Positions 1,554 through 62,720 of a DNA stretch of 64,000 nucleotides are shown piece after piece (the stretch's first letter is position 1; each line of letters opens with the position of its first letter). The stretch comes from Stegostoma tigrinum. Its lineage: Eukaryota. The translations under genes and the position numbers were made by a program. The notes below the pieces were generated by a model, which worked only from the letters and a program-made list of their open reading frames with translations, was not told the origin of the DNA and searched no databases. The stretch spans positions 6,121,858 through 6,185,857 of the forward strand of contig NC_081395.1 in assembly GCF_030684315.1 (NCBI RefSeq). The letters run 5' to 3'.

Positions 1554-1574
1554 CGTCAAGAGAGCTTTACTCTA

Positions 1575-2206: not shown

Positions 2207-2219
2207 TTCTTTACTTTGT

Positions 2220-3553: not shown

Positions 3554-3564
3554 GTAATCATGTA

Positions 3565-6262: not shown

Positions 6263-7079
6263 AGTGGACCAGACTGGGGCCCCTCAAAATATTTTACAAA
6301 GGTAGCCTAAACCCTAACTTTTTCTTATTTTAAAGGTAGATCTGAAGTGCATGTTCCAGATGTGATGTGACTGGTCAAACTACTCAATGCTTAGCAAAAC
6401 ACTATTTATTTAAGCACTATAGTTCAAATACAAACAAAGAAGGAATTTAGAATAGCAACAATTGGAAAATTTAACTGAATAATAGATACAGTAACTATTA
6501 CTAACTAACTGTTCCAATATGGTAACATTTCATATACACACCCCTTGGCAAAAACACAAATTCAGACACAGATGCTTCTGAGAGACAGTAGGAACTGCAG
6601 ATGCTGGAGAATCCGAGATAACAAGGTGTGGAGCTGGATGAACACAGCATCAGAGGGGCAGAAACATCAGCGTTCCTGGTCCTGAGATGCTGCTTGGCCT
6701 GCTGTGTTCATCCAGCTCCACACCTTGTTATCTCAGGTTCTTAACAGCAGTTCTCCATTCCAGGAGGGATAAAGCATTAAGAGGAATTTCGGAAAAAGTA
6801 GCAGCGAGGAATCATTCACTGAACAGCTTCCAGCTCTCCTGAGACCCCAAACAGCTTCTGCTGCTTAAAGCTAAAAAAATTAGAAAGCCTGATCTGTGAG
6901 AAGTGGCCACTCCCATTCAAGCTGCTTCCATGGTTCTAACTTTTCTAAAGAAAACCTAAAAGCTTCCCATGTTGTTTACTTGAGCTGACTTCAATAGCCA
7001 GTTCAGCACCTCTGCCTTTACAAATTCTCTTCAAACAAAAAAAGACAAAATAATCTTTTAAAGTGACACTATCATCACA
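6263..7079 (-). mobile_element. Probable solo-LTR-like insertion interrupting an old CR1
   Basis: CR1 coding remnant caggatgtgactagtgg resumes as gtccctcatggatctgtt at about 7081; insert ends ...atcaca, is non-coding and has AATAAA on the minus strand near 6405. TSD not clear. Confidence 0.45.
6581..6734. mobile_element. Fold-back Penelope-type mini-element (family A), centre deleted
   Basis: gagataacaaggtgtggagctggatgaacacagca is the inverse of tgctgtgttcatccagctccacaccttgttatctc; 34-nt unpaired left tail. Confidence 0.8.
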
Positions 7080-8234: not shown

Positions 8235-8668
8235 ACACAACCCAAAGTCAATCACTAACAGTCCCCATTAATAGCTATTCATCCTCCTAGCCAGATTGTT
8301 ATCCACTCCTTTATCTGTCCAACTGTTCTTCTCTCTCTCTTTTTGGCTGTATCCCCACCTATCATTTACTCCTTACCCTCTCCCAACACCCTGTGTTCTG
8401 CATATAATCCAACATTTTCCATGCTACCATCAGTTCTGAGGAAGGGTCACTGGACCCGAATCATTAATGCTAATTTCTGCCCTCAGGTGCTGCCAGACCT
8501 GCTGAGCTTTTCCAGCAACTTCGGTTTTTGTTCCTGATTCACAGCATCCACAGTTCATAGTTCTGAGGAAGGGTCACCAGACCCAAAATGTTAACTCTGT
8601 TTTATCCTTCACGGATGCTGCCAGAACCGCTGGGCTTTTCCAGCAACTTTCCTTTTGTTCCACAGTTC
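8235..8668 (+). mobile_element. Penelope-like 3' end with two head-to-tail hammerhead-motif units (127-bp period)
   Basis: agtt-ctgagga-agggtc-ac(t/c)(g/a)-gaccc at 8432 and 8559, each followed by gctgccaga...gcttttccagcaact; pyrimidine-rich upstream segment. Confidence 0.7.
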
Positions 8669-10950: not shown

Positions 10951-11119
10951 GCTCCTCTGACCCACCACCTTCTGAAACAGAAAATTCCTCCTGTGTTAAA
11001 CGGGAGAATTTTTTTTATTTGACCTGTGCCCCCTACTTTGATTCTCTGGCGCAGCTGGAGACATCCTCTCAGCATCCACCTCGTCAAATTTACTCAAAAT
11101 CTTGTGCCTCAATCAGATC

Positions 11120-11338
11120 TAACATAACAAAGTGTGAGGCTGGATGAACACAGCAGGCCAAGCAGCATCTCAGGAGCACAAAAGCTGACGTTTCGGGGAC
11201 TAGACCCTTCATCGTAAGGGTCTGTGCCCGAAACGTCAGCTTTTGTGCTCCTGAGATGCTGCTCGGCCTGCTGTGTTCATCCAGCTCCACACTTTGTTAT
11301 CTCGGATTCTCCAGCATCTGCAGTTCCCATTATCTCTG
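11120..11338. mobile_element. Fold-back hammerhead-motif mini-element (family A) with 14-bp TSD
   Basis: Inverted arms around gacgtttcggggactagacccttcatc / agggtctgtgcccgaaacgtc; flanks gcctcaatcagatc (11106-11119) and gcctcaagcagatc (11339-11352). Confidence 0.85.
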
Positions 11339-11934
11339 GCCTCAAGCAGATCAACTTCTTTAATGCATTTAATGCATATTAGCCAGCCCTTGTAAATCCA
11401 CCGCCACATCTTGGGTACCAGTTGAGGGAATGTTTTTTTTCTGATTGAGAAGAGGCAGTCCCAAGCTAAACCGATCCAGTCTTAAACAAGTTAAAATAAG
11501 CGATAAACTTTTGGAACACAACTCTGATGAAACACAAAATCAACACTGGAATCCTCGACCTGCTCGATAAAGGCACCAAGTTAAAAAGTATAAACACTGG
11601 TTAGTCCCCAACTAAAGCGTCATATTCAATTCTGGGTTCCAAACTTCAGGAAGGATCTCAGGGCCTTGCAGAGGACGTAGAGGAGTTTTACTGGAATGGG
11701 ACCCAGAAAGAGGGACTTTGGTTCATGCGGGATTCTGGAGACGCTGGGACCATTCCTCATGGAGAAGGGAAGGTTCAGCGGGATATTGATTTGTGAAGTT
11801 CAAAATCAGGAAGATGTTTGGGTCGAATGAATGAGTGAGAAAAGCAGCAGGAGGATCCATCACCAGTGTAACACAGATTGAAGAGACTAAAGAAAAGGAC
11901 CCGAGGGGGAGATGAGAATGTTTTATTTGAGGCA

Positions 11935-15900: not shown

Positions 15901-16289
15901 GTTTGATGAGGCAATTCTTCACATAAAGGGGATAGGAGATCTGGAACTGCCATTTTGTTCTCTCTCTTTCTTTCTCTTCCCCCTCTCCCGTTTCTCCTCC
16001 TGCACTCTTTCTCCGTATGTATAAAATGTAGATGTATACCCAGATTGTCAACAAGCCCTGCGCATTACTTACAGGTGACAAAACTGGGAATCAATAGATT
16101 TTGTTTGGTAAAGAGGAATTAAGAGTTAAGGGACCAAGGAGGGAGTAAATGGAGTTGCAAAGAGATCAGCTTTGGTTAAATGAATAGTGGGACAGTCTCA
16201 AGCGGCTGAATGACCTCCTGGTTCCTATGCAATGTAAATGTTGGTTATTGGTGTTAATGTGACTGTCCCATTTATGGGGCACCATGCCC

Positions 16290-17312: not shown

Positions 17313-17498
17313 GGCACTCTCTTTTCTCCAAGGACCATCCAGATTTGGTAAATATGGAAGCTGCCTTCATGTCAGTCCAGTGTCACTGAATGATCCTTCT
17401 CCACTCTCTTTTCTGTTCCAGGATGAGCAAGGCCTGAGGCTCCCTGTGAGTCTGAGACAATCCCTGATCCCCCTACCCCCAACACACAGTTCACCCCG

Positions 17499-21583: not shown

Positions 21584-23865
21584 CCTTAAAATAGGGGCCA
21601 TCTGAATATGAACCAGGGGACCTCTTGATCTGCAGTCAAATGTTTTATCATTGAGTTGTACCCCCAAGACTGTAGTATGTTTCAATAAAGTTGCCTTTCA
21701 TTCTTGTATATTCCAATGAGTGCAGGCACAAACTTTTTCAACTTCTCATAAGACAGTCTCTCCATACCCTGAATGAAGCTGATGAATTGTCTCTGACTGC
21801 TTCCCATGCCAGTATATCTTTCCTTAGATAAGGGACTCAAAACTGTTCAGTTTTTCATCTATAGTCTGACCAGTGCCTTGTATAGTTTTAGCAAAAACTT
21901 CCCTACTCTTACGCTCCACTCCTTTTCAAAACACAGTCAACATTCTATTTACCTTTCCTGAAATTGAGTGGTAGTTTTTTTTGTGACTCATGGACAAGGA
22001 CTCCCAATCCCTCTCCCATAGGTTTCTGTAGTCTTTCCCCATTTAAGTAATATTCTGTGATAATCCACTATTTCAAAATATTCAGGTGCTAAACTCAGCA
22101 TCAATGGGCCCTAGGAGGCTACAAGAGTCCTACAATTGGAGAAAATTATAACAAACTGGTTAAAAAATCTTCAAAATATGAAATTACAAAAGTCCTAATG
22201 ACAAAGGAAACTCTTAAAGTATTATTTTTGGAAGGTGATCCATCCCCTAGTGTCCATAGGCTGTGGACCCCCCACCCCCACCCCACCCCACCCCGAGCAG
22301 GGACACAACTATGGAGAGTTCTAGCATTGTACTGTTATTTTAAATAAACACAATTAGGGCAAACACCCCATCAGGGGTTTGAAAATAAAAATCAAATTCT
22401 ATAGGAATTTTTCAACTAGTCAGGTTTGGAGCTGGCATTAAACTGGGTCAGAGAAACCTCAGCAACCAAGGCAGTCATTCTACCCATTGTGCTCTGCAGA
22501 GTCTTTGAAAGAGCCATCTAGTTATTCCTGGTCCCCAATGTAAGACCATCAACCTGAAATGTTAATGTAGTGTTTCTGTACAGTTGCTGCCTAATATGGG
22601 TTTTTCCTTGTGCCCCAGCCCTCTGCAAAGGCATTTCAAGTATTCACCCCCCGCTCCCAAACTTGTGAAAGTTCCTGGCGAACTTACTTCCACAAGCCTT
22701 TCGGCTACACATTCCAAATCGCAATGTAATGATCCTCATCTCCACTAATTCTCTTCAATCTTTCTCCTCCTGGTGACTGACCCTTGTGCCACCAGGACCA
22801 GTTTCTCCCTTGTCCACCTGACGTCCCTTCCTGATTTTACCAACAACTCAATTCAATCCTCCCACAAACTTCCTTTACTCAAGAGGAAAGCGTTCCCAAC
22901 TCCTCACATTCGGAACAAGAACAACAATATCCTCAAATTGTGTGACAGCTGGCAAGAAGTTTTCACCCAAAGACTGAGCCGATCCAAAATGGACAGGTGA
23001 CAGGCACAGTGCAATGTGTGGAGGGGCCAGCGTTGTAAACAAAGGAGGCAGTCATTGACCACTCAGATAAGATTGCAAGACATTTCAAAATTTAATTGGG
23101 AATGGGGCAGGGCTTTAACTTTACAAAGGTGAGTGCAACAATTTGGGTTGGTGGGAAAGGAATGGACGATGTGGCCTCACCGCACACTCCCCTCTAGCTC
23201 ATCCATCTCCAAGTGTGTCTCTTATCTTTGATGTTGCGGCAATCCTCATCTTTCTGAAATTTGCTAAATCGGCACTTTGAACAAGAATAAGTTTGAAATG
23301 CAACTCCTCTTTGCAAAAAGACTGAGGACACCCAGACTCTCTAATTGTACTGTGTACATTTTGGTCTCCATAAGAATTGTTTGACTTGAATGGGAAGTTG
23401 TTTGGAGGTTTCCTCGGGTGGACGGGCTGGTTTTGTGGAAAGAGGCTGGATAGATTCTTCCTCCCCTCTCTCTCCTTGCACACTTATCTCTGGCTTATCA
23501 AAGCCTCAAACCAGCTCAACAGATCCCAAATCAACCCAGAACTCTCTAGTTGCTTACCACTCCTATCCTGCAGTGAGGCTAGTGCTCACACAGATGGTTG
23601 TCGTGAATCCTCACAAAGTGAGTTCTATCAGGAAAGATGGTGTAAAGTTGCAGTTCAGAAAGGCTTTTGCTGCCCGGTGGTAGCGTCCTTACCTCTGAAC
23701 CAACAATCCAGAGTCCAAGCTGCACCTGCTCTAGATAACATCACCGAAACAGGCTGATTAGGAAATAGCTCCAATAACGAATCAGAACTTTAAAGCCCAG
23801 CTAAAGTGAAGATAGGTCTTGGAAAATCACTCCTGCAACATGTTTCAAAAAAATTTCAAGACAAC

Positions 23866-24066
23866 TGTGAAGCTGGATGAACACAGCAGGCCAAGCAGCA
23901 TCTTAGGAGCAGAAAAGCTGACGTTTCGGGCACAGACCCTTCATCAGAGGTCTAGGCCCGAAACGTCAGCATTTGTGCCCCTGAGATGCTGCTTGGCCTG
24001 CTGTGTTCATCCAGCCCCACACTTTGTTATCTTGGATTCCCCAGCATCTGCAGTTCCCATTATGTC
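23866..24066. mobile_element. Fold-back mini-element (family A) with intact hammerhead core on minus strand
   Basis: Minus 23947-23920: CUGAUGA-A-GGG-ucugug-CCC-GAAA-CG-UC; plus arm agggtctaggcccgaaacgtcagc; about 45-nt tail. Confidence 0.85.
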
Positions 24067-24728
24067 AGGAGATGGAACCCTGTCTGCTCTCTGCACTATA
24101 ATATACAGATACCCTGCCCCAGGTCAATATCACACAACTCCAGCTCCTGGTGCACGAGGCTGAATAAATCAAAGGCTCCAGCCTGCAGGGTGACACCAGT
24201 CACACACCAGGTACTAACTACACTTCCCAAACACTGCTGAGCTCGGCAGTAACGGCGGTGGGGGGGGTGGGGGGTGGTACAAGTGTTATGTTGCATTAAT
24301 CACAAAAATGTTAATATACAGATGCAGCAAGTGATGAGGAAGGCAAATGGAACGTTATTTATTGCAGGTGAATGAAACATTGTGGTAGGGAGATTTTACA
24401 GAGCCTCAGGAATACTGAATCTGACGTATTGTACACTAGTTTCCTTACTTGAAAAGACTTTTATTTATATAATGCTCTTAAGTGCTGTTGGAGTGCCCCT
24501 ATCTGTAACACTAGAAGGCCAAGATTCAAGTTCCCACCTGCTCCAGAAAAGGTGTCAGGTTGATTTTTTAAAAACCCTAAAAGTTGTGTTAAAAGCAGTT
24601 CAGAGGATGCTGTTTCGACTGCTACCATCGATGAAGGGTTTATGAGAAGAGTTTGGTCAGGCCTGCATGCATTGGAATTTAGAAAAATGAGAGGGTGATC
24701 TTAGTGAAACAAACGAGATCCTGAAGGA

Positions 24729-24856
24729 AAAAAAAACCAAGCTCTCTGGATACTGGAAATCAAAACAAAACCAAATTGCTGGAGAAACTGAGCAGGTCCA
24801 GCAGCATCTGCGGAGAGAAAGAGTGAACATTTCTAGTCCAGTGACCCTTCTTCAGA
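24729..24856 (-). mobile_element. Hammerhead-motif mini-element (family B), single arm, inserted in CR1 remnant
   Basis: Minus strand ctgaagaagggtcactggactagaaatgttc...; flanking agatcctgaa at 24716-24725 and 24854-24863. Confidence 0.65.
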
Positions 24857-25347
24857 TCCTGAAAGAACCTGGTAGGGTCAATGCTGAAAGAATGGTCCCC
24901 TTCGTAGGAGAAACCAGAACCAGGGACATCAATCAAGGCTAAAACGAAAATGAGGAATTTCTTCTGGGGTCAAAGGCAAGTGTGTGGACTGTGGCTGGCT
25001 CATTGAATGTACTCAAGGCTGAGTTAGATTTCTGTTTGGAGGGGTTGAGGGTCTTTTTGTTTTAGCGAGAGTGCGCTGGTGAAGTGGTCCATGAGGTACA
25101 GCAGGGTTTAATGACCCACACCAGCTCCAATAATTCCTACATCCTTTCTCTTTCAGAGGAAATCAAATAGATCCACCACCACAATGTCATCCTTCCACCC
25201 ATCAATTGAAATCAAAACCTCTGACCTACTGGATCTGAAACAGCCAGCCCAATGGGCTGTTGGTGATCCCCTAATATCACTGGTTGGCCTGAGTGTGTCT
25301 GATTAATAAAGAGCCACAGAGGAATTTAAAATGGAAGCATCAAGTAT

Positions 25348-28579: not shown

Positions 28580-28848
28580 CTGAGATGGAGAATAAGCAGC
28601 ACGTCACCCCACCTCAAACCACATTTATACTCATTTAGGCATCTTCAAGTTAGGAAACGATCACAAAGGCGTTCAAAGGCAGGTGAAGAACTACCTCACT
28701 CCAAGCCTCAGCAGGAGATATTGGGAACATGTGACCAAATGAAAAGGAGCATTTTAAAGGAAGGAAGTGAGAGGTATTCAGAGGGAATTCCACAGTTCAG
28801 AAATGCTCAAGAAGCTGCAATTAGGAGTACTAGTTTTCCGAGGGGGAA

Positions 28849-29636
28849 TGGAGGAGGTGACAGAGACAGGGAGGGATGCAGGCAGTTGGAGGAGGTGACA
28901 GAGACAGGGAGGGATGCAGGCATTTGGAGGAGGTGACAGAGACAGGGAGGGATGCAGGCAGTTGGAGGAGGTGACAGAGACAGGGAGGGATGCAGGCATT
29001 TGGAGGTGGTGACAGAGACAGGGAGGGATGCAGGCATTTGGAGGAGGTGACAGAGACAGGGAGGGATGCAGGCATTTGGAGGAGGTGACAGAGACAGGGA
29101 GGGATGCACGCATTTGGAGGAGGTGACAGAGACAGGGAGGGATGCAGGCATTTGGAGGAGGTGACAGAGACAGGGAGGGATGCAGGCATTTGGAGGAGGT
29201 GACAGAGACAGGGAGGGATGCAGGCATTTGGAGGAGGTGACAGAGACAGGGAGGGATGCAGGCATTTGGAGGAGGTGACAGAGACAGGGAGGGATGCAGG
29301 CATTTGGAGGAGGTGACAGAGACAGGGAGGGATGCACGCATTTGGAGGAGGTGACAGAGACAGGGAGGGATGCAGGCATTTGGAGGAGGTGACAGAGACA
29401 GGGAGGGATGCAGGCATTTGGAGGAGGTGACAGAGACAGGGAGGGATGCACGCATTTGGAGGAGGTGACAGAGACAGGGAGGGATGCAGGCATTTGGAGG
29501 AGGTGACAGAGACAGGGAGGGATGCAGGCATTTGGAGGAGGTGACAGAGACAGGGAGGGATGCAGACATTTGGAGGAGGTGACAGAGACAGGGAGGGATG
29601 CAGGCAGTTGGAGGAGGTGACAGAGACAGGGAGGGG
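28849..29636. repeat. 38-bp minisatellite, about 21 near-identical copies
   Basis: ggaggaggtgacagagacagggagggatgcaggcattt; degenerate relatives at about 52003-52230 and (reverse) 59590-59790. Confidence 0.97.
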
Positions 29637-29904
29637 TGTACAGGCTGGAGTTCTTTTTTAGTTCATTCACTTGTGGGACATGAGCCAAACAAGTACTTAT
29701 TGCGCAGTTACAAAGATAGGGAGGGGGTGTATGGACCGGAGGGGGTGACAGATATGGGGAAAGGGGTGTAGGAGCCAGAGAAAGTGACACAGATAAGGGA
29801 GGGGCTGTAGGGGCCAGGGCAAGTGACAGAGATAGGAAGGGGTTGTCGGGGCCGGAGGAGGTGACAGAGATACAGAAGGTGCAACCTAAGAAGAGACCAG
29901 TGCT

Positions 29905-30514: not shown

Positions 30515-30754
30515 CTGCAACACAATACCGATAAATCATGGCTTGGTCACACCCAACTTAGAAAACCTTTTGAAAACAAAGACGTCAGGTCAAGGCGATT
30601 ATCTCTCTCACTCGTCAGGACTGAACTGGAAGAAAACCGACTTCAGTAAGAGAGAACAACAATTTAGACTACACAAGAAGAGAGTGCAAATGGTTAAGCC
30701 ATGGATGGCGTGGCGATCCAGCTGGAGGGAGTGTAGCGGCTGACACAGACAGGG

Positions 30755-32383
30755 ACGGGGTGACAGAGGTAGATGGGGGGGGGGGGGGGGGAGTTGACAG
30801 AGGTAGATGGGGGGGGTGAGAGAGGTAGATGGGGGGGGTGAGAGAGGTAGATGGGGGGGGGTGAGAGAGGTAGATGGGGGGGGGTGAGAGAGGTAGATGG
30901 GGGGGGGTGAGAGAGGTAGATGGGGGGGGGTGAGAGAGGTAGATGGGGGGGGGTGAGAGAGGTAGAGGGGGGGGGGTGAGAGAGGTAGAGGGGGGGGTGA
31001 GAGAGGTAGAGGGGGGGGTGAGAGAGATAGAGGGGGGGGTGAGAGAGATAGAGGGGGGGGTGAGAGAGATAGAGGGGGGGGTGAGAGAGATAGGGGGGGG
31101 GTGAGAGAGATAGAGGGGGGGGTGAGAGAGATAGAGGGGGGGGTGAGAGAGATAGAGGGGGGGTGAGAGAGATAGAGGGGGGGTGAGAGAGATAGAGGGG
31201 GGGTGAGAGAGATAGAGGGGGGGGTGAGAGAGATAGAGGGGGGGGTGAGAGAGATAGAGGGGGGGGTGAGAGAGATAGAGGGGGGGGTGAGAGAGATAGA
31301 GGGGGGGGGTGAGAGAGATAGAGGGGGGGGGTGAGAGAGATAGAGGGGGGGGTGAGAGAGATAGAGGGGGGGGTGAGAGAGATAGAGGGGGGGGTGAGAG
31401 AGATAGAGGGGGGGGGTGAGAGAGATAGAGGGGGGGGTGAGAGAGATAGAGGGGGGGGTGAGAGAGATAGGGGGGGGGTGAGAGAGATAGAGGGGGGGGG
31501 AGAGAGAGATAGAGGGGGGGGTGAGAGAGATAGAGGGGGGGGTGAGAGAGATAGAGGGGGGGGTGAGAGAGATAGAGGGGGGGGTGAGAGAGATAGAGGG
31601 GGGGGAGAGAGAGATAGAGGGGGGGGGTGAGAGAGATAGAGGGGGGGGTGAGAGAGATAGAGGGGGGGGTGAGAGAGATAGAGGGGGGGGTGAGAGAGAT
31701 AGAGGGGGGGGTGAGAGAGATAGAGGGGGGGTGAGAGAGATAGAGGGGGGGTGAGAGAGATAGAGGGGGGGGTGAGAGAGATAGAGGGGGGGGTGAGAGA
31801 GATAGAGGGGGGGGTGAGAGAGATAGAGGGGGGGGTGAGAGAGATAGAGGGGGGGGTGAGAGAGATAGAGGGGGGGGTGAGAGAGATAGAGGGGGGGGGG
31901 TGAGAGAGATAGAGGGGGGGGGGTGAGAGAGATAGAGGGGGGGGGTGAGAGAGATAGAGGGGGGGGGTGAGAGAGATAGAGGGGGGGGGTGAGAGAGATA
32001 GAGGGGGGGGGTGAGAGAGATAGAGTGGGGGGGTGAGAGAGATAGGGGGGGGGGTGAGAGAGATAGAGGGGGGGGGTGAGAGAGATAGAGGGGGGGGGTG
32101 AGAGAGATAGAGGGGGGGGTGAGAGAGATAGAGGGGGGGGTGAGAGAGATAGAGGGGGGGGGTGAGAGAGATAGAGGGGGGGGGTGAGAGAGATAGAGGG
32201 GGGGGGTGAGAGAGATAGAGGGGGGGGGTGAGAGAGATAGAGGGGGGGGGTGAGAGAGATAGAGGGGGGGGTGAGAGAGATAGAGGGGGGGGTGAGAGAG
32301 ATAGAGGGGGGGGGTGAGAGAGATAGAGGGGGGGGGTGAGAGAGATAGAGGGGGGGGGTGAGAGAGATAGAGGGGGGGGTGTA
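30755..32383. repeat. G-rich 20-23 bp minisatellite (gtgagagagatagaG7-10)
   Basis: About 1.6 kb of tandem units differing mainly in G-run length. Confidence 0.97.
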
Positions 32384-32574
32384 GGGGATGGAGGCCATCA
32401 CTGTCGGGATGCTGCAGGAATTGGCTGTGTCCATAACCATGTCCTCAGGGAAAATGATGCGATGTGAGTTGTAGAAGGTAATGGTTTTGGAAGGGTTAAT
32501 GTTTGGGAACTGCATTCAGCTCCACTCAAAACTGATGACATCACAAGGACTTGGGTGGAGATAAGGACAAACAG

Positions 32575-38621: not shown

Positions 38622-38751
38622 GGAGCACATTACTGCAGATGCTGAAATCTGTACTGAAAACAAAACATGCTGGAAATCACAGCGGGTCAGGCAGCATCTG
38701 TGGAGAGAGCAAGTTAACGTTTCGAGTCTAGATAACTCTTCATCAGAGCTC
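38622..38751 (-). mobile_element. Hammerhead-motif mini-element (family C) with near-intact core
   Basis: Minus 38750-38711: AGCU-CUGAUGA-A-GAGU-uaucuag-ACUC-GAAA-CG-UU-AACU; sister core at 57724-57762(+). Confidence 0.75.
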
Positions 38752-39177
38752 TTCTAAGAGGAACTTTAGAGCAGATGTTTCCTCTGATGGGAGAACCTAC
38801 ACCTAGGGGGCACCATTTAAATAGTCAAATTTAAGACACATCGTTTCACAAAGAGATTCACGAGTCTTTGGAATTTTTTTTGTTCATGGAGGGGTGTTGC
38901 TGGTAGAGCCAGCGTTTATTGTATATCCTCAGTTGCATCTTGAGAAGGTGGTAGTGACATGCCTTCCTGAACCACTGCAGTCTATGCTGTGGGTATACAC
39001 ACACAATGCCCTTAGGGAGGGACGTCCAGGATTTTGACCCAGTGACAGTGAAAAAGAATGGTGATTTCTTTAACCCCTCACTTCCCCGCCCCCAAGTCAG
39101 GACGATGAGTGGCTTCAAGGCAAACTTGCAGGAGTTGGCGTTCCTATGCATCTGCTGCCCTTGTCCTTCGAGATTGT

Positions 39178-44345: not shown

Positions 44346-44504
44346 GCCAGGCCTTTTATGATAATTAGAAAGCTAGGAATTTAAACTACAGTTTAGTATT
44401 GTTGAGAAAAGATGTCAACTTTCTACTGATTTCAGGGACTAAATATTCAGCTTTGAATACGTTTATCCCATTTAAGTGTGGCAAGGTTTTTTTTTAATAT
44501 TAAA

Positions 44505-44695
44505 AAAAAACGGAAGTTGCTGAAAAAGATCATCAGACCTGGCAGCATCTGTGAAGAAAAATCTGAGGAAGGGTCACCAGACTCTAAACGTTACCTGATT
44601 TTTCTTCAGAGATGCTGCAGGATATGCTGAGCTTTTCCAGCAACTTCCGTTTTTGTTCCTGATTTAACAGCATCCGCAGTTCTTTTGGTTTTTAT
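44505..44695. mobile_element. Fold-back hammerhead-motif mini-element (family B)
   Basis: aaaaacggaagttgctgaaaaag is the inverse of cttttccagcaacttccgttttt; core ctgaggaagggtcaccagactctaaacgtt at 44563; about 39-nt tail. Confidence 0.75.
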
Positions 44696-44974
44696 TTTGT
44701 ATTTTTTTTTAAAAAAACAAATTGTTTGAGCTCTTGAGCAGCCAAGTTTAAACATGTAGCTAGAAGTTGGAATATGTTAACATGCACCTCAGCCAGCAAC
44801 AGGTAGTTTGGAATTGGGCACAAATTTGTACATTTTGTGTTTAAAGGTCATGGCTATTTGCAACTCAATGGAGAGCTTTTGAGCTTCTCCTTGCGTGCAC
44901 GTGAGTAAACTTGTGTCGACTCTTATTTGACACAGCCTTTCAGGGGCCAGTCGAAAAAGTGGAGGCAAATGGAG

Positions 44975-45193
44975 AATGCTGGAGAAACTCAGCATGTCTG
45001 GCAGCATCTCTGGAGAGAGAAAGAAAGAAAGAAAGAAAGAAGGAAAGTTAACATTTCAAGTTCAGGATGACTGTTCTTCAGAATTGCAGATCTGAAGAGT
45101 CATCCCAGACTTGAAACACTAATTCTCTTTTTCCACAGATCCTGCTGAGTGTCTCCAGCATTCTCAATGTTTGTTTCAGATTTCCAGCATCTG
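44975..45193. mobile_element. Older fold-back hammerhead-motif mini-element with internal (GAAA)n
   Basis: aatgctggagaaactcagca is the inverse of tgctgagtgtctccagcatt; back-to-back degenerate cores around 45050-45120. Confidence 0.65.
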
Positions 45194-45879
45194 GTGGCAG
45201 AGGTCTAGCGGTCGCAGCAAGTTAGCAGCGAATCGTGGCTTTGGAAATGAAGGCCGACCTATCTTAAGACACAGAAGTTTCCCATTCTGCTTGGCTGTTT
45301 CTTGTATTTCTGCTTTTGTTTTTGTTTTAATTCTGCTTTTTGTGTCTAAAATTGTTGATTTGGTTGTTTCTGAGATGGTTGTTACTGTTAATTCTAGTTT
45401 TTTGTTCCTCATAAAGGTGAGAGGATGGCAACTCTGTACACTTCACTGTACTTCTGTTTCCCTGTACTTGAATACGTGAGACAATAAAATCTAATTCTAG
45501 TTCTAAGTGAAGAAGTGGGAGGTTTGTTTGAGCTGGCATACAGGCCAGAGGAAAAGCTGTAAAGACCATGTTGTTTTATTTTGTTATTTTACAATTGTAA
45601 CTGAAATGAGAGAGAGAGAGAAGTTTTACACCCACTGCTTTGAAAGGATGGCAGCAAGGCTTGAAAGCAAGTAACCTGAAACTCCTGTCCAGCATTGTAA
45701 ATAGATGTTTGAACAATCAGTAACCAAGTGGCTGCAGATGAACCAGAGCCAAGGGGTTTTGTACTCTGACACAGGTCTGGTTGGTAACATAAAGTTGATG
45801 GGTTTATAGAATAGTGACCAGGTATCAATGACAAAGGTCTCCTGCCTGCCAAAATCTGAGAGTTTGGTTTTCTCACAGA

Positions 45880-46557: not shown

Positions 46558-46735
46558 TAAAAACCAAAAGAATGCAGATGCTGTAGATCAGAAACAAAAA
46601 CAGGAATTGCTGAAAAAGCTCAGCAGGTCTGGCAGCATCTGTGGACAGAAAGCACAGTTAATGTTTCAGATTGAGTGACCCTTCCTCAGATGCTGCCAGA
46701 CCTGCTGAGCTTTTCCAGCAATTTCTATTTTTGTT
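46558..46735. mobile_element. Fold-back mini-element (family B)
   Basis: aattgctgaaaaagctcagcaggtctggcagcatct is the inverse of agatgctgccagacctgctgagcttttccagcaatt; degenerate core gacccttcctcag at the centre. Confidence 0.75.
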
Positions 46736-48030
46736 AGAAATGTTTACAGACTAATTTGTGGTAATAAATGGTAATTCTTGTTAAATAGAGAAACCTAGTC
46801 CATGCTTTTTGTCACCCTAGGTCTTAAAAAAGGCAAATTGAGCAATTCTATGTACGTACTTAATCTTTAACCTTTGTGGCATTGCTCGATCTTCAACGTG
46901 CTACCCCCAGCAAGGTGTGACAAAGCAGATGGCATTAACACAGGACCTTGCATGCAACTGTCCACCTCTAACCCCACAATAATTTCTCACAAGACCTACA
47001 GCATCAGTCCCCCAATGCAGTCACACAACAGCAGTGTGTGCTTTTGTATGATCAGTTTGGGAGTGGCATATGTTAAACGAAGACTATGGGGTTTGGAGGG
47101 AGAGATGAGTATCCAGGCATCTGTATTTTTTGATCTGCCTTTTTGTAATGAATATCTTTGTGCTTTAAAAGGGTATAAAGTCAGCCTCATAAGTGAAAAA
47201 AAAAACATTTTTTGCTAATTGTTTCAGAATAGGTCTGGTTACAATAATTTTTTTTTGTTGATGATGAAACCTGGTGAATTTGCTTTTGTCCTGAATGCAG
47301 TTTGTCAGGTAAGTTGATCACCTCAGTAGTTTTTAAACACTGAGTGGTACCATCTCGGTGGTAGATGGACATTTGGAACAGTTTGTGGATTAATGTGACT
47401 CGGTTATCAGGTCGTATATCAACAGTTCCGTTGTTTTACTTGTGGCTAAAGTTGGTAACAAAGTAATTCTTCCAACTAATACAACTCTTCCCAACTGAGT
47501 CAGGATATCCATTTGTCTTACCAAGGGAGGACAGTGGAGTTTCACCCGACCAATCCCTGGGACAACAGAACTGTCCCATGAGGAGAGATTGAGACTGGGC
47601 TTCTATTCTCCAGAGTTTCAAAGTGACAGGTGATCCAATTGTTGAAATACAGAAAGGAGGCTCTCCCCAGGGGTTTTTTTGTTGTGATGAGGCATGTCAA
47701 GGGACAAAAAAGGTATAGAACCAGCTGAGTCTCAGGATAAGAGCTTGGCCATTTAGGACTGAAAGGAGGCATTTCTTCACTCAGGGTGGGAAATCGTGGA
47801 AATTTTCTACCCCAGAGGGGCAGTGGAGGCTCAGATGTTGAGTATGTTCAAGACAGAGATCAATAGGTTTCTAGATAACAGAGATATCAGGGGATAGTGT
47901 GAGGTAATGATCCTACTGAATGGTAGAGTGGGCTCCCTTTTCTTGTGCAAGAAAGCTCACCTCAAACTGTTAGCATTTCAATCCTACACACTGTTTTATA
48001 AAACATTGTGCTGCAGTGATGAGCACTCAC

Positions 48031-48133: not shown

Positions 48134-49089
48134 CTGAAAGGGGAGAAAGCAGAAGCAAGAATTGTTAAACATAGGTACAGTCATCACGTCTGGGAATAGG
48201 ATGTGCTCAATAATCCTATAGTAGGATTCCTGTAGCTCTTGAAGATGTTGCTTCAGGAACAGAGGTCACTCAATTTTCCCAATCTCTTCTTTTCCTTCTC
48301 TGTGCCCACTTCCTTCATCCTTCGCCAGATTGAAGTTTTCCCCCATTGAAGGGTGACCTACCAACAGGAGTGTTGCTCCTTCTGCCCTCAGGCTTAACAC
48401 TGGACAGTTAGACACAACAGATGTACATCTTTCACATGACTGAAGAGGTATCAATGAGATCTGTCACAGCTCTTCAGCCTGACTGCCACTGACAGGGCAC
48501 TGCCTACCTTTCCCAGTTAGAAGAGCATTTGCAGAGCTGCTGCACCAGGCACTGCTCAAACAAAGTGGGTGGGTGGGTGGGTGGGTGGGTGGGTAAGGGA
48601 GTTCCAGACAGCAACTGCTACTGGTGCCAGGAATACTTGTGGAAGGAGCTAGCAGTGACAAAAGAATCAACCATGAGCAGCATTGCAGCCCGATGCTAAC
48701 GTTGCTGCTCTGACCACCGTCAGGCACAAGAGGTACTGAGGTGGCCTCTTTTTGACAGGGATGCTACGAGGGAGAGAAGAGCGAAACCATACTGCTCACC
48801 ATCCCCAGTAAGAAGCCTGTCCACGGGATTGACCATGATTGGACAAGGGAGGCCTGCTGCCTTGGAGATGTTGCAAAGGACATAATGACCCCGGAATACC
48901 TTCTGCATATATTATGCAAAGGAAGTGATTACCTCACAATGACCACTACATAAATTTAATAAATGAGGTCGCCTCACAATACCCTCTGCATATGTTATAC
49001 AAATTAGGCAACGACCTCACAATAACTCTGCATACATTATGCAGATCCGGTGACCACCTGACAATATTAAAGAACTGCAGACACTGGAA

Positions 49090-49177
49090 ATGAAGGGTCT
49101 GGTCCCAAAGCGTCAGCCTTTGTGCTCCTGAGATGCCGCTTGGCCTGCTGTGTCCATCCAGCCCCACACTTTGTTAT
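49090..49177 (+). mobile_element. Single-arm family A mini-element
   Basis: atgaagggtctggtcccaaagcgtcagcc...ccacactttgttat. Confidence 0.75.
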
Positions 49178-49699: not shown

Positions 49700-50300
49700 G
49701 GCGAAGGGAGACGGTGGGGTGGGGGGGTGAGCAAGAGGGTAGACAGTGCGCATGCTCTGTCCTCCCCCTTGCAGCGGGTGCCGAGGCGCTGCGCATGCGC
49801 TGCTCCCCGCGCGGCACACCAGGCCGGGAAACCCCTCGTCGCACGGGAAGTAGAAGAGTTAGTGCGCATGCTTCGCGCACGCCCCCGACTACATACCGGG
49901 AAAACGAGGCGGAGAGCTGGATGAACACAGCAGCCCGAGCAGGAAGGCTGACGTTTCAGGCCTAGACCCTTCTTCCTACTATCTCTACATAGCGGGAAAC
50001 CCCGCCTCTCCCTTTTCACAGCGGATTCGCTGGGTGAGAAGGGAGTCAGTGCGCAAGCGCCGTCCCGCCCCCGCCTGGCAAGGAAACCCCGCCCCTCCCT
50101 TGGCCGAATTTGGGTGTGGGGAGGGGACAGTGGTGTCAGTGCGCATGCTTCGCGCGCCTGCCGCAGCCCTTCCCCCTCCGCCCGGGGCGAAACCCCGCCC
50201 CTTTTCACAGCGGTGTTTGACGGGGGGGGGTGGAACGAGTAGAATGGAGTCAGTGCGCATGCTCCTCCCCCTCCGCACCTGCGCGGGATTGGGGCAGAAG
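49700..50300 (-). promoter_or_regulatory. CpG-island promoter of ADSS with six NRF1-like motifs and GC boxes
   Basis: TGCGCA(T/A)GC at about 49747, 49790, 49863, 50050, 50140 and 50254; ccccgcc boxes at about 50000, 50064, 50087 and 50193; CGGGAAGT at about 49845. Confidence 0.8.
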
Positions 50301-50616
50301 CCTGTAAATGCCCCCCCTAAGAGCAGAGGATTGCTCGTCCCTCCTTCGGGAGGGGGTATGCCATCGACAGCACCGTCCCTCAAAACGTAGAAGAAAGACA
50401 GAGGTTAGGGTGTGAGAATGTTACAGCCTTCAGGTGTTTGGGGGGGGCACCTTCAAACGAGACGTTCAGGCACCTGTACACAGCGAGGATCCTCGAGGTC
50501 CCCACCACTCCCCTGAGGCCTAATCTCTCAGAGCAATAAACAACCCGAGCAGGCCCTGTCTCTACAGAAGGTGCCGTGGAATCTGATGAGAATGGTGTGC
50601 AATCCCAGCACCAGCA

Positions 50617-50737
50617 GGGTCTAGGCCCGAAATGTCAGCTTTCGTGCGCCTAAGATGCTGCTTGGCCTGCTGTGTCCATCCAGCTCCACACTTTGTTATC
50701 CCAGGTTCTCCAGCATCTGCAGGTCCCATCATCTCTG
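50617..50737 (+). mobile_element. Single-arm family A mini-element with full tail
   Basis: agggtctaggcccgaaatgtcagc...ccagcatctgcaggtcccatcatctctg. Confidence 0.8.
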
Positions 50738-55545: not shown

Positions 55546-57102
55546 TTTGGATCTGAGTCCAATGTGCTGTAACTGCCCCCAGCCCCAGGCCCTGACAGTG
55601 CTGTGCCAGCCAGGCTGATCTACCAGTGAGGGCAAGTCTGATCTTAGCCACCATGTTTCCTAATCAGACACACTCGCTCTTTTCAGGAAGGCTCTTTGTA
55701 GAGGGGAAGGAAGGAATGGGACAGTGTAATGACACCACCCAGCCAACCCTGGATAAACTTGCCCAGTGAGAATCTGGACTGGAGAAGGAGTTAGAATCCC
55801 AGCCTCTGTGACCTGACCTCCCACTGAGCCACAGCAACATCCAGAGTGATTTTATTTCCATTTGTTTCGGGAGAAGGCCATTCACCACCACCCCCCCCCC
55901 CCCAGACTTCCTGCACCTTCATTCATCCATTAGTCTGCCTCTGAAACCCCGTGTCACCCTGAACCTAACAAACAAACTTAAACCTATCCACCTCCATCTT
56001 GAAAGCTCCAGTTGCCCCCCCCCCCCCCCCCCCCCAACAACCTTCCCAATCTCGGGCTGCTTATTTTCAAGGGAGAGGGGGCTGAGGTAAAGATTCCAGA
56101 TTTCTCTTCTTGATGTGAGAAAATGCTTCTGGACCTCACCCCTGAATGGCCTGATTCAAATACTTCTCTCCGCTGCCCCCACTTTGATCCAGACTCTTTT
56201 CCCCCCACCGCCCCTGCCAAGAGACAAGCAGCTTCTCTGTCTCCCTGCCTTCTATTTCAAATCCTTTTCAAGGCCAGAGATGCAGTGATCGGATGGTCAT
56301 ATGAAATAGGAACCGGAATAGAGCAATTGGCCCAAGTGCCTGCTCTGTCGTTCCTAAGATCTGACTCGGTTTTGAATTCCTCATTCCCCAATGTCCTTTG
56401 ATCCCCTTGCCTGGCTAGAATCTATATAACCCTCGTCTTAAAAATGTCCAGTGACCCCCTCTATATCACGGCCAACACCTTCTGAAGCATACAGTTTCAA
56501 AGTCAACAGTCCTCTGAGAGAAAAATAAAAAAAACCTCCTATCTGCCCTGAAAGGGAGACACCTAATTTTATAACATTGCCCCCCTGGCTTATTCTAGAC
56601 TGACCCGCATCTTATATTCTTCTATTCTTTTTCACTCTTCTAAACTCCAGTGGAAATAAGCCCAGTCTGTCCATCCCATCCTCTTAAGACATTCATTCCA
56701 GGTATCAATCTAGTAAACCCTCTCCGAACTGCGCACTGCATTTACATCTTATAGTGACACTGAGTGAGTAATCAGGAGGCATAGGGAATCATTGGTTCAA
56801 ATCTCAAAATGGCAGCTGAGAGAATTTAAATTCTATGAATAAAATCTGGAATTAGAAGCTCGTCTCGGGGGCTGTGATAACTATCATTGATTGCTTAAAG
56901 CAAACCCATCTGGTTCACTAATGCATTTCAGACAAGGAAATCTGCCACCCTTACCTGGTCTGGCCTGTATGTGAGTCCGGACCCACTGCAATGTGGTTGG
57001 CTCTTAACTGCCCTCTGAAGGCAGCAGGACGGGTGATTAAGAACGTACATGGGATATTTGCTTTTATTGGTCTATGTATTGAATAGAAAAGCAAGGAGGC
57101 AT

Positions 57103-57325
57103 GAAAACAGAAATTGCTGGAGGAAATCAGCATGGCTGGGAGCATCTCTGGAGAGGGAAACAAGAACATTTCAGGCCTGGTGACCCTTCGTCACCTTGTC
57201 ACACACTGGAAGCATTAACTTCATTTCCTTTTCCAGAGATGCTGCGAGACCTGTGCAGTTTTTCCAGCAATTTCTGTTGTTGTGTGTTTCAGATCTCTAG
57301 CATCCACAGTTCTTTGATTTATTTT
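57103..57325. mobile_element. Fold-back mini-element (family B-like), diverged
   Basis: aacagaaattgctgga is the inverse of tccagcaatttctgtt; central catttcaggcctggtgacccttcgtca is a degenerate minus-strand core. Confidence 0.65.
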
Positions 57326-58119
57326 AGTGGTCACGATGGAGTTGTGAATAACATTTAATTAGGCCACAGCTGAAGTACTGTGTGCAGCTCTGGTCACCAC
57401 ACCATCAGAAGGATGTGATTGCTCAACACAGAGCGCAGAAGAGACGGGCGATAAATGTCGGCAGTAGTCAGCAATGCTCACATCCCACAGACGAATAGAA
57501 TAAAACCTTCCATCCCTAGACTTGAACATTTCCTCATGGGAGCTGGGTGTCGCTGGTCTTAGCAAAATATCTAGGCTTTTGAATCCAGATTTATTTTTAC
57601 TTGAATTTCCATTTCACCTGCTGCTATGATGGCATTTGAAACCATGTCCCAAGAGTATCATCCCAGGCCTCTGAATTACTAGTCCAGTGATATTACCACT
57701 ACATCAACTAGGCACCTCAGTGTAGCTCTGATGAAGAGTCATCTAGACTTGAAACTTTAGCTTGCTGTCTGACCCACTGCGGGGAGCCCCCGCATTGGCA
57801 AGGTGGAGACAATCTGTAAATGTGACAGAGCTGTGCCAATTATCCTTAATTGTGTTACACCGTCTCTATAACTTAGAATAATCTGGCGCTGCCGTCTGTC
57901 TGCCCGTCTCCCACAGTTACATTCAAGCCCAGACATCTATGGAAAGGGAGCATGCGGTGTCCCATCGATGCTCTCGATGCCTTTAGAGAGAGGTGGGCAC
58001 CGCAGGGATACAGTGCTTTATTACCCCAACTCCACTTTCATCTAGTCCCTTCCTGTACTCCCTCCCTCCATCCAGATGGTTGAGTCATTGAATGTGCTCA
58101 AGCCTGCATTAGACAATTA

Positions 58120-58690: not shown

Positions 58691-58787
58691 TTGCAGAGTT
58701 TTGGCGGATGAGAGGCTGGAGGGTTACTCGGGAGGGGGAGGTGCAGGTGGGAATAAGGGAACTGAGATCCCAATCCATTTGGACATG

Positions 58788-58974
58788 AGATAATGGGAAC
58801 TGCAGATGCTGGAGAATCCAAGATAATAAAGTGTGAAGCTGGATGAACACAGCAGGCCAAGCAGCATCTCAGGAGTACAAAAGTTGACGTTCTGATTAAG
58901 GGTCTAGGCCCGAAACGTCAGCTTTTGTGCTCCTGAGATGCTGCTTGGCCTGCTGGGTTCATCCAGCTTCACAC
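58788..58974. mobile_element. Fold-back family A mini-element with perfect 14-bp TSD
   Basis: tccatttggacatg at 58774-58787 and 58975-58988; core ctgattaagggtctaggcccgaaacgtc. Confidence 0.9.
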
Positions 58975-60365
58975 TCCATTTGGACATGTTTGAATTGACT
59001 GGCAGGGTGGAGTTTAAGGCATGTTCACATGATGTGCTCCCACTGGGGTTCTCACAGTTTGGATGCGAGGCTGCAGGCAGACAGTTTGTTCCCACCCACT
59101 ATGCGTCAGTGCTCAAGGCAGCTGCTTAATGACCAGAGGGATCTCCACTGCAGGATCTATTTGATTATTGTGACTAGCTCAGAGGCACAACCAATTAAAT
59201 CACAGGTCCAATTAGATTGCCTGCCCAAACATTAATTCTCATTCCATCCCGGAAATGGCTTGTTAATGAGCTCATTCCACACCCCGCCAACCTCTCTCTC
59301 CCTCCCTTCTTCCCACCCCACCGGAGTCCAGTTCTTTACTGCTTTGGCTCCTGTCACATCTTCTTTGACCTGATCCAACAACCCAACATTTGCTCTCAAC
59401 ATAGGCCAATGATGCCCACAGCATCACTATCCAGTGACTGAGCTGGTGGTACAGGTTGGAGCAGAATGTCCCTCGGGAACAATGGGAAGTCATTGGATTT
59501 GGTCCCTGCTCTAAACCGATTCCCCACTCCCTGGTAACAATCTGAGATTTAATTAGGTTCATCACAACCTCCAGGTCATCTTCCAGCCCAAGATCAGCTT
59601 CTGGCCTCATATTCACTCCATCTCCAGTCCCTACACCCCCGCCCTATCTCTGTAATCTCCTCCAGCCCCTACCTCCCTCCCTATCTCTGTAACCTCCTCC
59701 AGCCCCGACACTCCCTCTCTATCTCTGTCAGCTCCTCCAGCCCCTGCACCCCTCCTGATCTCTGTAACCTGCTGCAGACCTTACAACCTTCCGAGATCTC
59801 TGCGCTCTTCCAGTTCCAGCCTGTCGCACATGCCCCAAATTCCATTGGTCAGCTGTGCATTCAGTTGTGTGGAACACTAATTTCTGGAATTCCTTCTTTA
59901 AACCTTACACTACCTATCTCCTTCTTCTCCTGTAAGATGCTCCTTAAAATCCACCCCATTTTCCAAGCTTTGGCTCAATTGATTTAATGTCAACCTTTGC
60001 TTTATGTTGTGTTTGAGCGAGGTATCTTGTGTGTGTTTCATTTTGCCAAAGGTGCTATCCAAAGCTAAGTTGTTGTTGGACTGTGTGAATGTTGTTGGCT
60101 TTGTGCCCACAGTGTCTGGTGTTGGAGCCACCCTTTTGCAGGAAGGATGACTCTATCTAGTTAACGGGCCAGGAACCGGATACCAGATGTCTAAAATTAA
60201 ATCATTCTACAGTCAGCCCAAAGTGTCCAGCGAATGAACTATCTCAACTTCATCCTGAGATGCGGAGCTCAATAATTACAGCTCTCTGGTGTAAATGGAG
60301 AGGAGCATCCATGCTTTGGGATGGTTGTCACCCAGTTTGAGCTCACACACCAGCCTCAAGAGAGA

Positions 60366-60462
60366 TTTTCTGATGAAGGGCCTAGGGCTGAAATGTCAGC
60401 TTTCCTGCTCCTCTGATGCTGCTTGGCCTGCTGTGTTCATCCAGCTCTACTCCTTGTTATCT
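60366..60462 (+). mobile_element. Single-arm family A mini-element with probable TSD
   Basis: ctgatgaagggcctagggctgaaatgtcagc...ttgttatct; flanks cagcctcaagagaga / cagcctcagagaga. Confidence 0.75.
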
Positions 60463-60698
60463 CAGCCTCAGAGAGAGGTTCGCTCACCACTTTGACTCAC
60501 CGGGCAGCAGTGCTGGAGTTGATATGGGTGGGCCTAGTTCGCACAAAATGGGCAGCAAGATAGTTTGGGGGGGGGGGGGGGCGGTGCGTGATGGTTGTGG
60601 TCTTTGGCCCGCATGAGGAGAGAGTCCACTCAGTGTTGAAGAGTCTGCATCACAATGTTAATGACGGAGATGCCTGTGCTTTATGTTCGCTCTTTCAG

Positions 60699-60836: not shown

Positions 60837-61888
60837 GTGAGTCCGTGATTTCACAGCCCCGTTCACCATCCAACTTCCCACACTGCAAAAGACCTGCACC
60901 AAACAGCCTCCCTCTTTCTGAACGTAACCACCAAAAACCCACAGCACAGAAGGAGTCCCTGTAATAATATGCGCAAGGCTAATTCCTGGTTCCTGTTGTC
61001 AATTGGTTTGTAATAATATATCTATTTCCATACTGCTGCACACAATGGTTAAATGCAGAATGATGGCTGCAAGACAGTAACACAATTAATTTCAAGTAGC
61101 TGTAGCTGTAATATGTGTTTTGTTTGTAACTGATTTGATTCCAAGATTACAGAAGGACCTATCACAATATTTGCTGGAAAGTAATAGGTCATACTTTCTG
61201 AGGCGTGGCAATCTTACACAAGTTGCCATCATCTCTGTGCTGAGTAAACTATCCACATGTTCAAATTCCATTTACCAGCACTCGGTCCGTAGCCTCATAG
61301 GTTCCAGCCCTTCAGAGACAGACCCAGGTTCATTTTTAAATGAGGTGAAGGGTTTCTGCCTCAAACACCGAACTGAGAGGTGAATTCTAGACACCCACCA
61401 GCCTCTGAGTGAAAAGGTTTTTCCTCATATCCTTTCCTTCTGCCAGCCACTCGCCTGCCCACTCTACCCAAGCCCCTCATTATGTCTTATACCTTAATTA
61501 AGCCCTTCAGCATCCTCTATTCTAAGGAAATGACCCAAACCTATCCAATCTCTCCTCACAGCTTCAATTTTCAAACCCTGGCAACAGAAGGCAAGGCTAG
61601 TGATATTATCACTGGACTGTCAATCAGGGATCTTTTTGTAATCTTAGATAAACTTCCTCAATGTCCAGTCTTACCACGAATTTCGGTGTTTTTCTAATCA
61701 TGCTTTCCATATTCTCATCTAAATCATTTATATAAATTACATAGAAAAATGGACCCAGCACTGATCCCTGTTGAACTCCAGTTGTCACAGACTTCCAACC
61801 TGAAAAACAGCCCTCCGTCACCACGCTCTGTCTCTTGCTGTTAAGCCAGTTTTGTATCCAATTTGAATCCCACCATCAGTCTTCTCTG

Positions 61889-62107
61889 GTAACAAAGTGT
61901 GGAGCTGGATGAACACAGCAGGCCAAGCAGCATCTCAGGAGCACAAAAGCTGATGATTCGGGCCTAGACCGATCAGAAAAGATGAAGGGTCTAGGCCCAA
62001 AACGTCAGCTTTTGTGCTCCTGAGATGCTGCTTGGCCTGCTGTGTTCATCCAACTCCACACTTTGTTATCTTGGATTCTCCAGCATCTGCAGTTCCCATT
62101 ATCTCTG
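61889..62107. mobile_element. Fold-back family A mini-element with perfect 14-bp TSD
   Basis: atcagtcttctctg at 61875-61888 and 62108-62121; about 80-bp inverted arms; 38-nt tail. Confidence 0.9.
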
Positions 62108-62520
62108 ATCAGTCTTCTCTGAACTGTTTCCGGTGCATTCACATCACAAGATAAACCAACTCCGCCATATTCTTCTCGTTAACACTGGGCGGTCTGTGGG
62201 ATCTTGCTGTGCACAAACCAACTGCCACCTGTGCCACTTAGCCACTGTAAAGAGAAATGTTCCCCATTCGAGAATGGCTTTGGGGGCATTCCTGAGGTGG
62301 GAATGGGTACTAGTGAAATGCAAGCCTTTGAAGGGCGGAGGGGTGTGGAGGGAGAATGGTTACAGGAATGGTTCGCAAGTTTACCGGGAACAGGTTGACA
62401 CTATGGATAAGTAGGGAGGGCCTGGAGAGAAAGGGATAGTTTGAGTTGGGGGGAGAGAAGAGAGAACCAAGCAGTTTGATATGTTAAAACCCTTCAGCAT
62501 GTGGCCTGGTGGCTGAGTGC

Positions 62521-62720
62521 NNNNNNNNNNNNNNNNNNNNNNNNNNNNNNNNNNNNNNNNNNNNNNNNNNNNNNNNNNNNNNNNNNNNNNNNNNNNNNNN
62601 NNNNNNNNNNNNNNNNNNNNNNNNNNNNNNNNNNNNNNNNNNNNNNNNNNNNNNNNNNNNNNNNNNNNNNNNNNNNNNNNNNNNNNNNNNNNNNNNNNNN
62701 NNNNNNNNNNNNNNNNNNNN
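62521..62720. other. Assembly gap (200 N)
   Basis: Run of n. Confidence 1.

Follow-up and report, generated by a model that had tools for sequence, protein, structure and literature searches.

Head-to-head fold-back insertions of probable Penelope-like origin in a 64-kb window of shark DNA

The hairpin at 61875-62121 of the window (the whole stretch of 64 kb analysed here) raises the question of how a short non-coding element made of two inverted arms, with a tail on one side only, came to be inserted. A first-pass annotation had described it as one of a family of fold-back elements built on hammerhead motifs and had ascribed the family to Penelope-like elements (PLEs). In the following, the repeated unit has a length of 129 nt counted from the C of CUGAUGA (+1), and hammerhead positions follow the customary numbering. 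The element, designated E17, comprises the following parts.

61875..61888, plus strand: left target-site duplication of E17, 14 bp, 14/14 identical with 62108-62121
61889..61980, minus strand: short arm of E17, unit about -4..+91, hammerhead core decayed
61981..62107, plus strand: long arm of E17, unit +3..+129, first two core bases absent and G12 changed
62070..62107, plus strand: one-sided tail of E17, unit +92..+129, delimited by the difference between the arm ends
62108..62121, plus strand: right target-site duplication of E17, 14/14 identical with the left copy

The two arms of E17 (61889-62107) fold as one hairpin of -163.2 kcal/mol (z = -21.5), and 0 of 200 shuffled sequences were equally stable. 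Head-to-head inverted arms of the same unit, with their 5' ends meeting, make up five fold-backs of what we call subfamily A (E1, E3, E4, E15 and E17). These five had already been listed, and all were recovered, at 6581-~6738, 11120-11338, ~23853-24066, 58788-58974 and 61889-62107, as were four partial copies at 49090, 49904, 50616 and 60366. A profile of 12 seed arms run on the 64-kb window gave 29 matches, 28 of them at E<=1e-5, and 0 in the reversed window. The resulting set holds 17 elements of three related subfamilies (A, to which E17 belongs, B and C), occupying 2,815 nt or 4.4% of the window. Nine of these are fold-backs and one is a direct tandem; in two others a short arm is accompanied by an inverted tail stub, and the remaining five are single or incomplete arms. 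The elements other than E17 are listed below.

6581..6738, no single strand: E1, fold-back, variant of subfamily A; long arm left with a 12-nt internal deletion, junction near 6661-6664, duplication not found
8430..8667, plus strand: E2, two units of subfamily B in direct tandem, decayed, with a 4-bp helix I register
11106..11352, no single strand: E3, fold-back 11120-11338 with 14-bp duplication 11106-11119/11339-11352 (13/14), long arm right
23853..24066, no single strand: E4, fold-back; left short arm with the sole intact core among the five, duplication not found
24716..24867, minus strand: E5, lone long arm of subfamily B, 24730-24853, with 14-bp duplication, one mismatch
38630..38752, minus strand: E6, lone long arm of subfamily C
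44498..44701, no single strand: E7, fold-back of subfamily B, long arm right
44960..45194, no single strand: E8, fold-back of subfamily C, weakest asymmetry
46560..46745, no single strand: E9, fold-back of subfamily B, long arm left
49061..49177, no single strand: E10, short arm (plus) with an inverted 17-30 nt tail piece before it, in an ADSS intron; the tail piece is short and was delimited partly by eye
49889..49999, no single strand: E11, short arm (minus) joined to an inverted tail end of ~12 nt, one mismatch in its 15-bp duplication; located in the CpG island 5' of ADSS exon 1
50616..50737, plus strand: E12, lone long arm, duplication not found
57099..57320, no single strand: E13, fold-back of subfamily B, long arm right
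57722..57790, plus strand: E14, partial arm of subfamily C, 4-bp helix I
58774..58988, no single strand: E15, fold-back 58788-58974 with duplication 58774-58787/58975-58988 (14/14), long arm left
60351..60477, plus strand: E16, lone short arm 60366-60462, intact core, degenerate 14-15 bp duplication with an indel

The claim that one arm is always the longer and that the tail is one-sided held beyond the original five copies. In subfamily A the long arms end precisely, at +126..+129, and the short ones loosely, at +83..+99, which leaves a one-sided overhang of ~30-45 nt; a long arm is paired with a short one in 9/9 fold-backs (judged by eye, with E8 the weakest case), an outcome with a probability of 0.002 if ends were drawn independently 1:1. 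The long arm lies on the right in six fold-backs and on the left in three. The 5' ends of 11/14 subfamily-A arms fall in -4..+8, and the 400 nt upstream of seven arms hold no sequence common among them. The centre junctions are all different in the nine fold-backs, several of them with 2-4 nt common to both arms (by eye). These junctions, and lone arms that carry duplications of their own, lend no support to a family of fold-back elements copied as a unit.

The suggestion that the family is fairly recent fared less well. Divergence from the majority sequence amounts to 15/432 sites (3.5%) in the four best fold-backs and to 7-18% in the other arms, figures that leave out the left arm of E1; the local alignment overran at the plus arm of E1 and at the minus arm of E15. 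Given this divergence and the presence of the unit also in zebra shark, recent origin is not established. Arms diverge within an element at 13/216 sites and between elements at 78/1,296 sites, so similar that the comparison does not discriminate among mechanisms. Some variants are shared between elements. E3 and E4 both have a two-base loop-II variant in one arm (the long arm in E3, the short one in E4), and both have at +78 a T in the short arm and a C in the long arm; this shows that the arms of one element need not share one template, or that conversion happened, two elements being too few to go further. The arms of E1 and E15 have non-majority bases in common.

A 14-bp target-site duplication had been reported for three copies, and it is present at each of them (61875/62108 and 58774/58975 with 14/14 matches, 11106/11339 with 13/14). 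Two more were found at 24716/24854 (14 bp) and 49889/49985 (15 bp). The clear duplications thus measure 14, 14, 14, 14 and 15 bp and a sixth, at E16 (60351/60463), is degenerate and ~14-15 bp long, so that 14 bp is typical but not fixed. Under a strict definition (a 13-mer with at most one mismatch within +-2 nt of the boundary) a duplication was met in 22/78,318 random pairs and in 5/8 elements tested; the three tested copies in which none was found are those at 6581, 23853 and 50616. Lone arms of both kinds, the long arm E5 and the short arm E16, have their own duplications. The AT content of the five clear duplications is 50-57%, compared with 52% for the window, and no AT-rich bias is seen. 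An 11-bp T/A match in the flanks of E7 was not counted as a duplication since it is of low complexity.

The 5' part of the unit fits the published consensus of the minimal PLE hammerhead (min-HHR), with its core, an extra base before helix II, a G-C first pair, GAAA, a palindromic loopless helix III, UH and a short helix I. Over 17 arms and nine pairs of helices I and II, 82.9% of the cells are paired and both sides have changed in 10 cells; slid registers reach at most 48.8% pairing. The covariation score was reached by 0/500 shuffles, a test that ignores relatedness, and since the arms come from three related subfamilies it is taken as support and not as a probability. Helix I is paired in 72% of cells over four pairs; it can reach 4 bp in B and C and, in the bases seen, is no longer than 2 bp in A. 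A minimal type I hammerhead ancestry of the unit is in this way supported by the sequence. The further implication of working ribozymes did not stand, as the copies themselves appear mostly dead. The full catalytic core is kept in 1/10 arms of the five fold-backs and in neither arm of E17; it is found in 2/14 subfamily-A arms (E4-left and E16) and broken in 12/14, while the family majority sequence has it. Forcing the core to form inside the hairpin costs 35 kcal/mol in E4 and 13 kcal/mol in E15, and 16 kcal/mol also in the lone arm E16. Published min-HHRs are themselves described as weak or protein-assisted in self-cleavage (PMC4209133, PMC11167929).

The Rfam comparison that had been proposed as a check returned 12 matches at E<=5; none was a hammerhead, the best being a sub-threshold miRNA model, and a covariance model scan of the window revealed no new hammerhead family. 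Such hairpins can be mistaken for MITEs or microRNA precursors. Downstream of the hammerhead a long stem is conserved across the subfamilies, and covariation was found in 0/14 of its pairs, for which reason it is not claimed as a structure. A 7-bp long-range stem from +45 to the tail (62014-62107 in E17 and its equivalents) is nearly invariant in A, B and C, likewise with no covariation, and could be a reverse transcriptase (RT)-binding element.

A MITE is characterized by symmetric terminal inverted repeats and a fixed short duplication, and neither symmetric termini nor a fixed short duplication was found among the elements of the window. Palindromic repeats of ~200 bp that derive from DNA transposons do exist, e.g. 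the frog Harbinger elements, and a MITE with long terminal inverted repeats is nevertheless a most improbable description of these copies. It is set aside because the ends are asymmetric in 9/9 fold-backs, the duplications are of 14-15 bp and lone arms insert with duplications; the covariation of the hammerhead stands against it as well. The assignment to PLEs rather than to MITEs made in the first-pass annotation is supported, and we consider a PLE origin of the elements very probable.

The coding capacity of the window was searched for the corresponding enzymes. Pfam was run on 52 of the 77 ORFs of at least 110 aa (the 25 omitted lie mostly in satellite or simple-repeat zones) and gave 0/52 matches to RT or GIY-YIG families, none adjoining any arm; apart from one sub-threshold entry, the only matches came from a BTB-zinc finger gene and an adenylosuccinate synthetase exon. 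A scan for commonly known RT and GIY-YIG motifs and tblastn of the window were both empty. Attachment of the unit to an RT+GIY-YIG ORF, which had been proposed as a check, was therefore not seen in the window, with the reservation that small PLE remnants may be missed because coding fragments below 110 aa were covered by the motif scan and tblastn only. As the elements are non-coding, they are not classed as autonomous PLEs. The unit has an open frame of 42 codons, a length common by chance, for which one match among four candidates was obtained: a zebra shark gene model in which a copy has been exonised (78% over 27 residues), with no PLE ORF. A profile-free protein search gave three matches, one of them spurious, and a bacterial genome scan gave 0. 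No PLE protein bearing the unit came from the protein searches, including those made with the flanking peptide.

The gene model in question, P0002 (zebra shark SPTLC1 isoform X1), has a repeat-derived C-terminus at residues ~385-489, in which the unit-derived insert sits inside a peptide also present in whale shark P0004 and P0005. This peptide may be the end of a PLE endonuclease; Pfam and ESM Atlas gave no confirmation, so the reading is not used as evidence. At the protein level only, sequences with and without the unit can be compared: P0002 has the 27-residue unit-derived insert and P0004 and P0005 are without it, these being repeat-like paralogues and not orthologous sites.

Two host genes lie in the window: a BTB + C2H2 zinc-finger ORF of 559 aa (17427-19106, plus strand) and the adenylosuccinate synthetase gene (ADSS), which is encoded by the minus strand and runs from ~49.7 kb to 28.5 kb or lower. 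E6-E10 sit in ADSS introns and E11 in the promoter CpG island of ADSS. E11 (49889-49999) is ~200 bp 5' of the first exon, and 7 nt at its end are complementary to the flank upstream. Copies within introns are likely to be substrates in the form of double-stranded RNA; heavy A-to-I editing of Penelope is reported in a lizard (PMC5625713), and an expansion of PLEs in whale shark introns (10.1101/443036). Among other repeats, two 235-nt copies at 12318-12552 and 14438-14672 are 100% identical and 2,120 nt apart, representing a recent duplication or an assembly artefact. A large inverted pair (813-1557 and 5377-6124, 75-81%) has a translation which by eye is presumably the 3' part of a CR1/L2-type LINE ORF2 (LINE and SINE are used here as conventional labels). 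Minisatellites occupy 169-4096, 16276-17431, 28697-29756 and 30684-32400, with periods of ~69, 33, 38 and 21 nt, respectively, and a gap of 200 N lies at 62521-62720.

How PLE enzymes could produce such elements is partly indicated by earlier work. Insertions of PLEs are often described as having an inverted copy truncated at its 5' end, a tail of 30-40 bp at one end and a duplication of variable length, the mechanism being called undefined (10.1101/2021.04.23.441226). Pairs of hammerheads on opposite strands 100-700 bp apart, together with many single motifs, have been attributed to PLE copies that are truncated (PMC4209133). Both strands are cut and extended by the purified enzyme of Anolis, which uses two internal start sites that bound the tail, accepts uncleaved RNA and is predicted to be a dimer (PMC11167929).

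Since all junctions are different and single arms also insert, the hairpin was probably made anew at each insertion and not copied as a unit. On balance we lean towards a full mechanism in which the fold-back is built anew from two cDNAs at a PLE-nicked target. We infer a PLE enzyme and double priming as follows. The unit would be the 3' end of a PLE pseudo-LTR, with the minimal hammerhead followed by ~100 nt that would hold two reverse-transcription start points, near +90 and +128. A GIY-YIG nuclease would cut both target strands ~14 nt apart; one nick would prime cDNA at the near start point and the other at the far one, whereby the tail would be added. Both cDNAs would end in or just before the hammerhead and would be linked head to head, often via an overlap of 2-4 nt, and repair would leave the 14-nt target duplication. 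Retention of a single cDNA would give a lone arm with a duplication. The sharp 5' boundary may be the template's 5' end, e.g. by priming on the pLTR copy with which a full transcript begins, and on these terms no non-autonomous master is needed; the products of an autonomous PLE transcript would look like those of a non-autonomous element. In D. virilis the transcript start is placed 46 bp before a 75-bp intron, the end of which maps to helix I (PMC2377424, PMC4209133).

Building anew is favoured by the existence of short arms with a tail stub (E10, E11) and of duplicated lone arms (E5, E16). Against it stand the lack of an RT/GIY-YIG gene beside any arm in the window and the arm variants shared by E3 and E4, which are explained as well or better by a pre-existing two-armed master. 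The Anolis enzyme favours AT-rich sites in vitro, whereas the five duplications show no such preference, and its start site is the same on both strands (PMC11167929), so the strict long and short rule is left unexplained by that work.

The main rival, which we hold to be possible but doubtful, is that a non-autonomous fold-back master, which itself arose through a PLE insertion, gives a hairpin transcript that PLE enzymes copy whole. In this reading, the closest to the wording of the first-pass annotation, reverse transcription begins on the single-stranded tail, passes over the loop or scrambles it, and ends variably in the second arm. It accommodates the uniform short length, the precise long ends (+126..+129) beside loose short ends (+83..+99) and the arm-specific variants common to E3 and E4 (by a rough estimate, chance ~4e-4 for the two-base change), and non-autonomous PLEs sharing 3' ends are known in Chlamydomonas. 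Yet 0 of the nine junctions agree, a master would be needed for each of three subfamilies, and the short arm E16 stands alone and has a duplication to itself. Moreover, hammerhead pairing has been conserved in the source lineage, although it is blocked within the hairpin.

Self-priming is improbable as a source of the second arm. In such a scheme a single cDNA snaps back within the palindrome-rich hammerhead and serves as its own template, or an antisense transcript primes itself, as proposed for rotifer Penelope from palindromes at head-to-head junctions; in the Adineta copies concerned the pLTRs are inverted, the tail measures 31 bp and the duplications 8-10 bp (PMC3846280). The shark junctions lie within the hammerhead or close to it and several overlap by 2-4 nt (by eye), which agrees with this scheme, as do the non-majority bases common to the E1 and E15 arms. 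However, the scheme predicts that the long arm reaches further 5', and by eye the short arm extends as far or further in E1, E3, E4, E15, E17, E10 and E11 (nearly level in E17), so simple fold-back copying of a long-arm cDNA fits subfamily A poorly; besides, the arms of E3 and E4 differ at a variant common to both elements.

It is similarly improbable that the template was a short head-to-tail or circular retrozyme-like RNA from the pLTR, with helix I supplied by the tail. One direct tandem (E2) is present, the bases 5' of the left core of E8 match the tail at 9/10 (by eye), and retrozymes of animals, which are related to pLTRs, have been reported from one chondrichthyan (10.64898/2026.07.22.740005). 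The arms do not as a rule begin at the cleavage site (+29), though, the upstream bases of subfamily A (TTTT in E16 and E17) are unlike its tail, and no array of more than two units occurs in the window. Head-to-tail repeats with intact hammerheads, the hallmark of retrozymes, number 0 in subfamily A, with one decayed dimer in B. The E8 bases in question form the linker 45082-45092, directly 5' of the left core, and hint at a head-to-tail junction. The 150 nt 5' of the tandem E2 (8280-8433) are pyrimidine-rich (74-82% in two 50-nt bins) and could be a PLE 3' UTR; no second copy of this stretch was found in the window.

A more speculative joint reading is offered tentatively: carpet sharks may hold very abundant ORF-less PLE products with their 5' limit fixed at hammerhead helix I. 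These would be either integrated 'strong-stop' cDNAs primed at the 5' pLTR copy or a SINE-like parasite of PLEs, 130 nt long and dedicated to this way of life, and two cDNAs would be joined at each insertion, one per start site and sometimes from two RNAs. If true, this would be genomic proof of obligatory two-ended PLE priming and would explain the inverted pLTRs and the one-sided tail.

The elements are most likely the ORF-less extreme of known PLE structure, and as such mechanistically useful and not surprising. Their structural features have all been published for PLEs; new here are how small and how dense the elements are and how strictly a long arm is paired with a short one. A search of the literature, made mostly outside subscription papers, found no published description of this shark family or of ORF-less long and short fold-backs as a class; the supplements of the 2026 preprint on retrozymes (10.64898/2026.07.22.740005), which covers one chondrichthyan, may list this sequence. 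As each 200-bp insertion displays both ends, the junction and the duplication, the mechanism of PLE insertion becomes testable by counting, if the density of 17 per 64 kb holds genome-wide.

The closest known structures are the inverted-pLTR insertions of EN+ PLEs, D. virilis Penelope and Adineta Pen2a (PMC3846280, 10.1101/2021.04.23.441226), described as sharing head-to-head terminal copies, a one-sided 30-40 bp tail, a variable duplication and 5' truncation. Unlike them, the shark elements have no ORF between the arms, which are ~90-130 nt long, and nine such copies occur in 64 kb; their duplications are of 14-15 bp instead of the 8-10 bp given for Adineta. The metazoan PLE min-HHR of Cervera and de la Pena 2014 (PMC4209133) has the same core, extra base before helix II, loopless palindromic helix III and short helix I, whereas the shark cores are paired adjacent to each other and mostly broken, with a helix II of 4-5 bp; cartilaginous fish are absent from the part of that alignment compared. 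Poseidon of Anolis (PAc; PMC11167929) likewise is described with a hammerhead ~100 nt 5' of two end points that bound a tail, but its ORF begins in the hammerhead, while the ATG in the core of the shark unit closes after 13 codons, and its AT-rich target bias is not seen in the five shark duplications. Animal non-LTR retrozymes (PMC7229834; 10.64898/2026.07.22.740005) are also reported as short, non-coding, pLTR-related elements with a type I hammerhead and duplications of >4 bp; they form head-to-tail tandems, in contrast to the mostly head-to-head, dispersed shark elements with one tandem dimer among 17. Finally, the non-autonomous Chlamys PLEs such as MRC1 are non-coding and have a 3' end in common with a PLE, and differ, as portrayed in PMC8557442, in belonging to a green-algal clade without a canonical hammerhead and in forming head-to-tail multicopy insertions.
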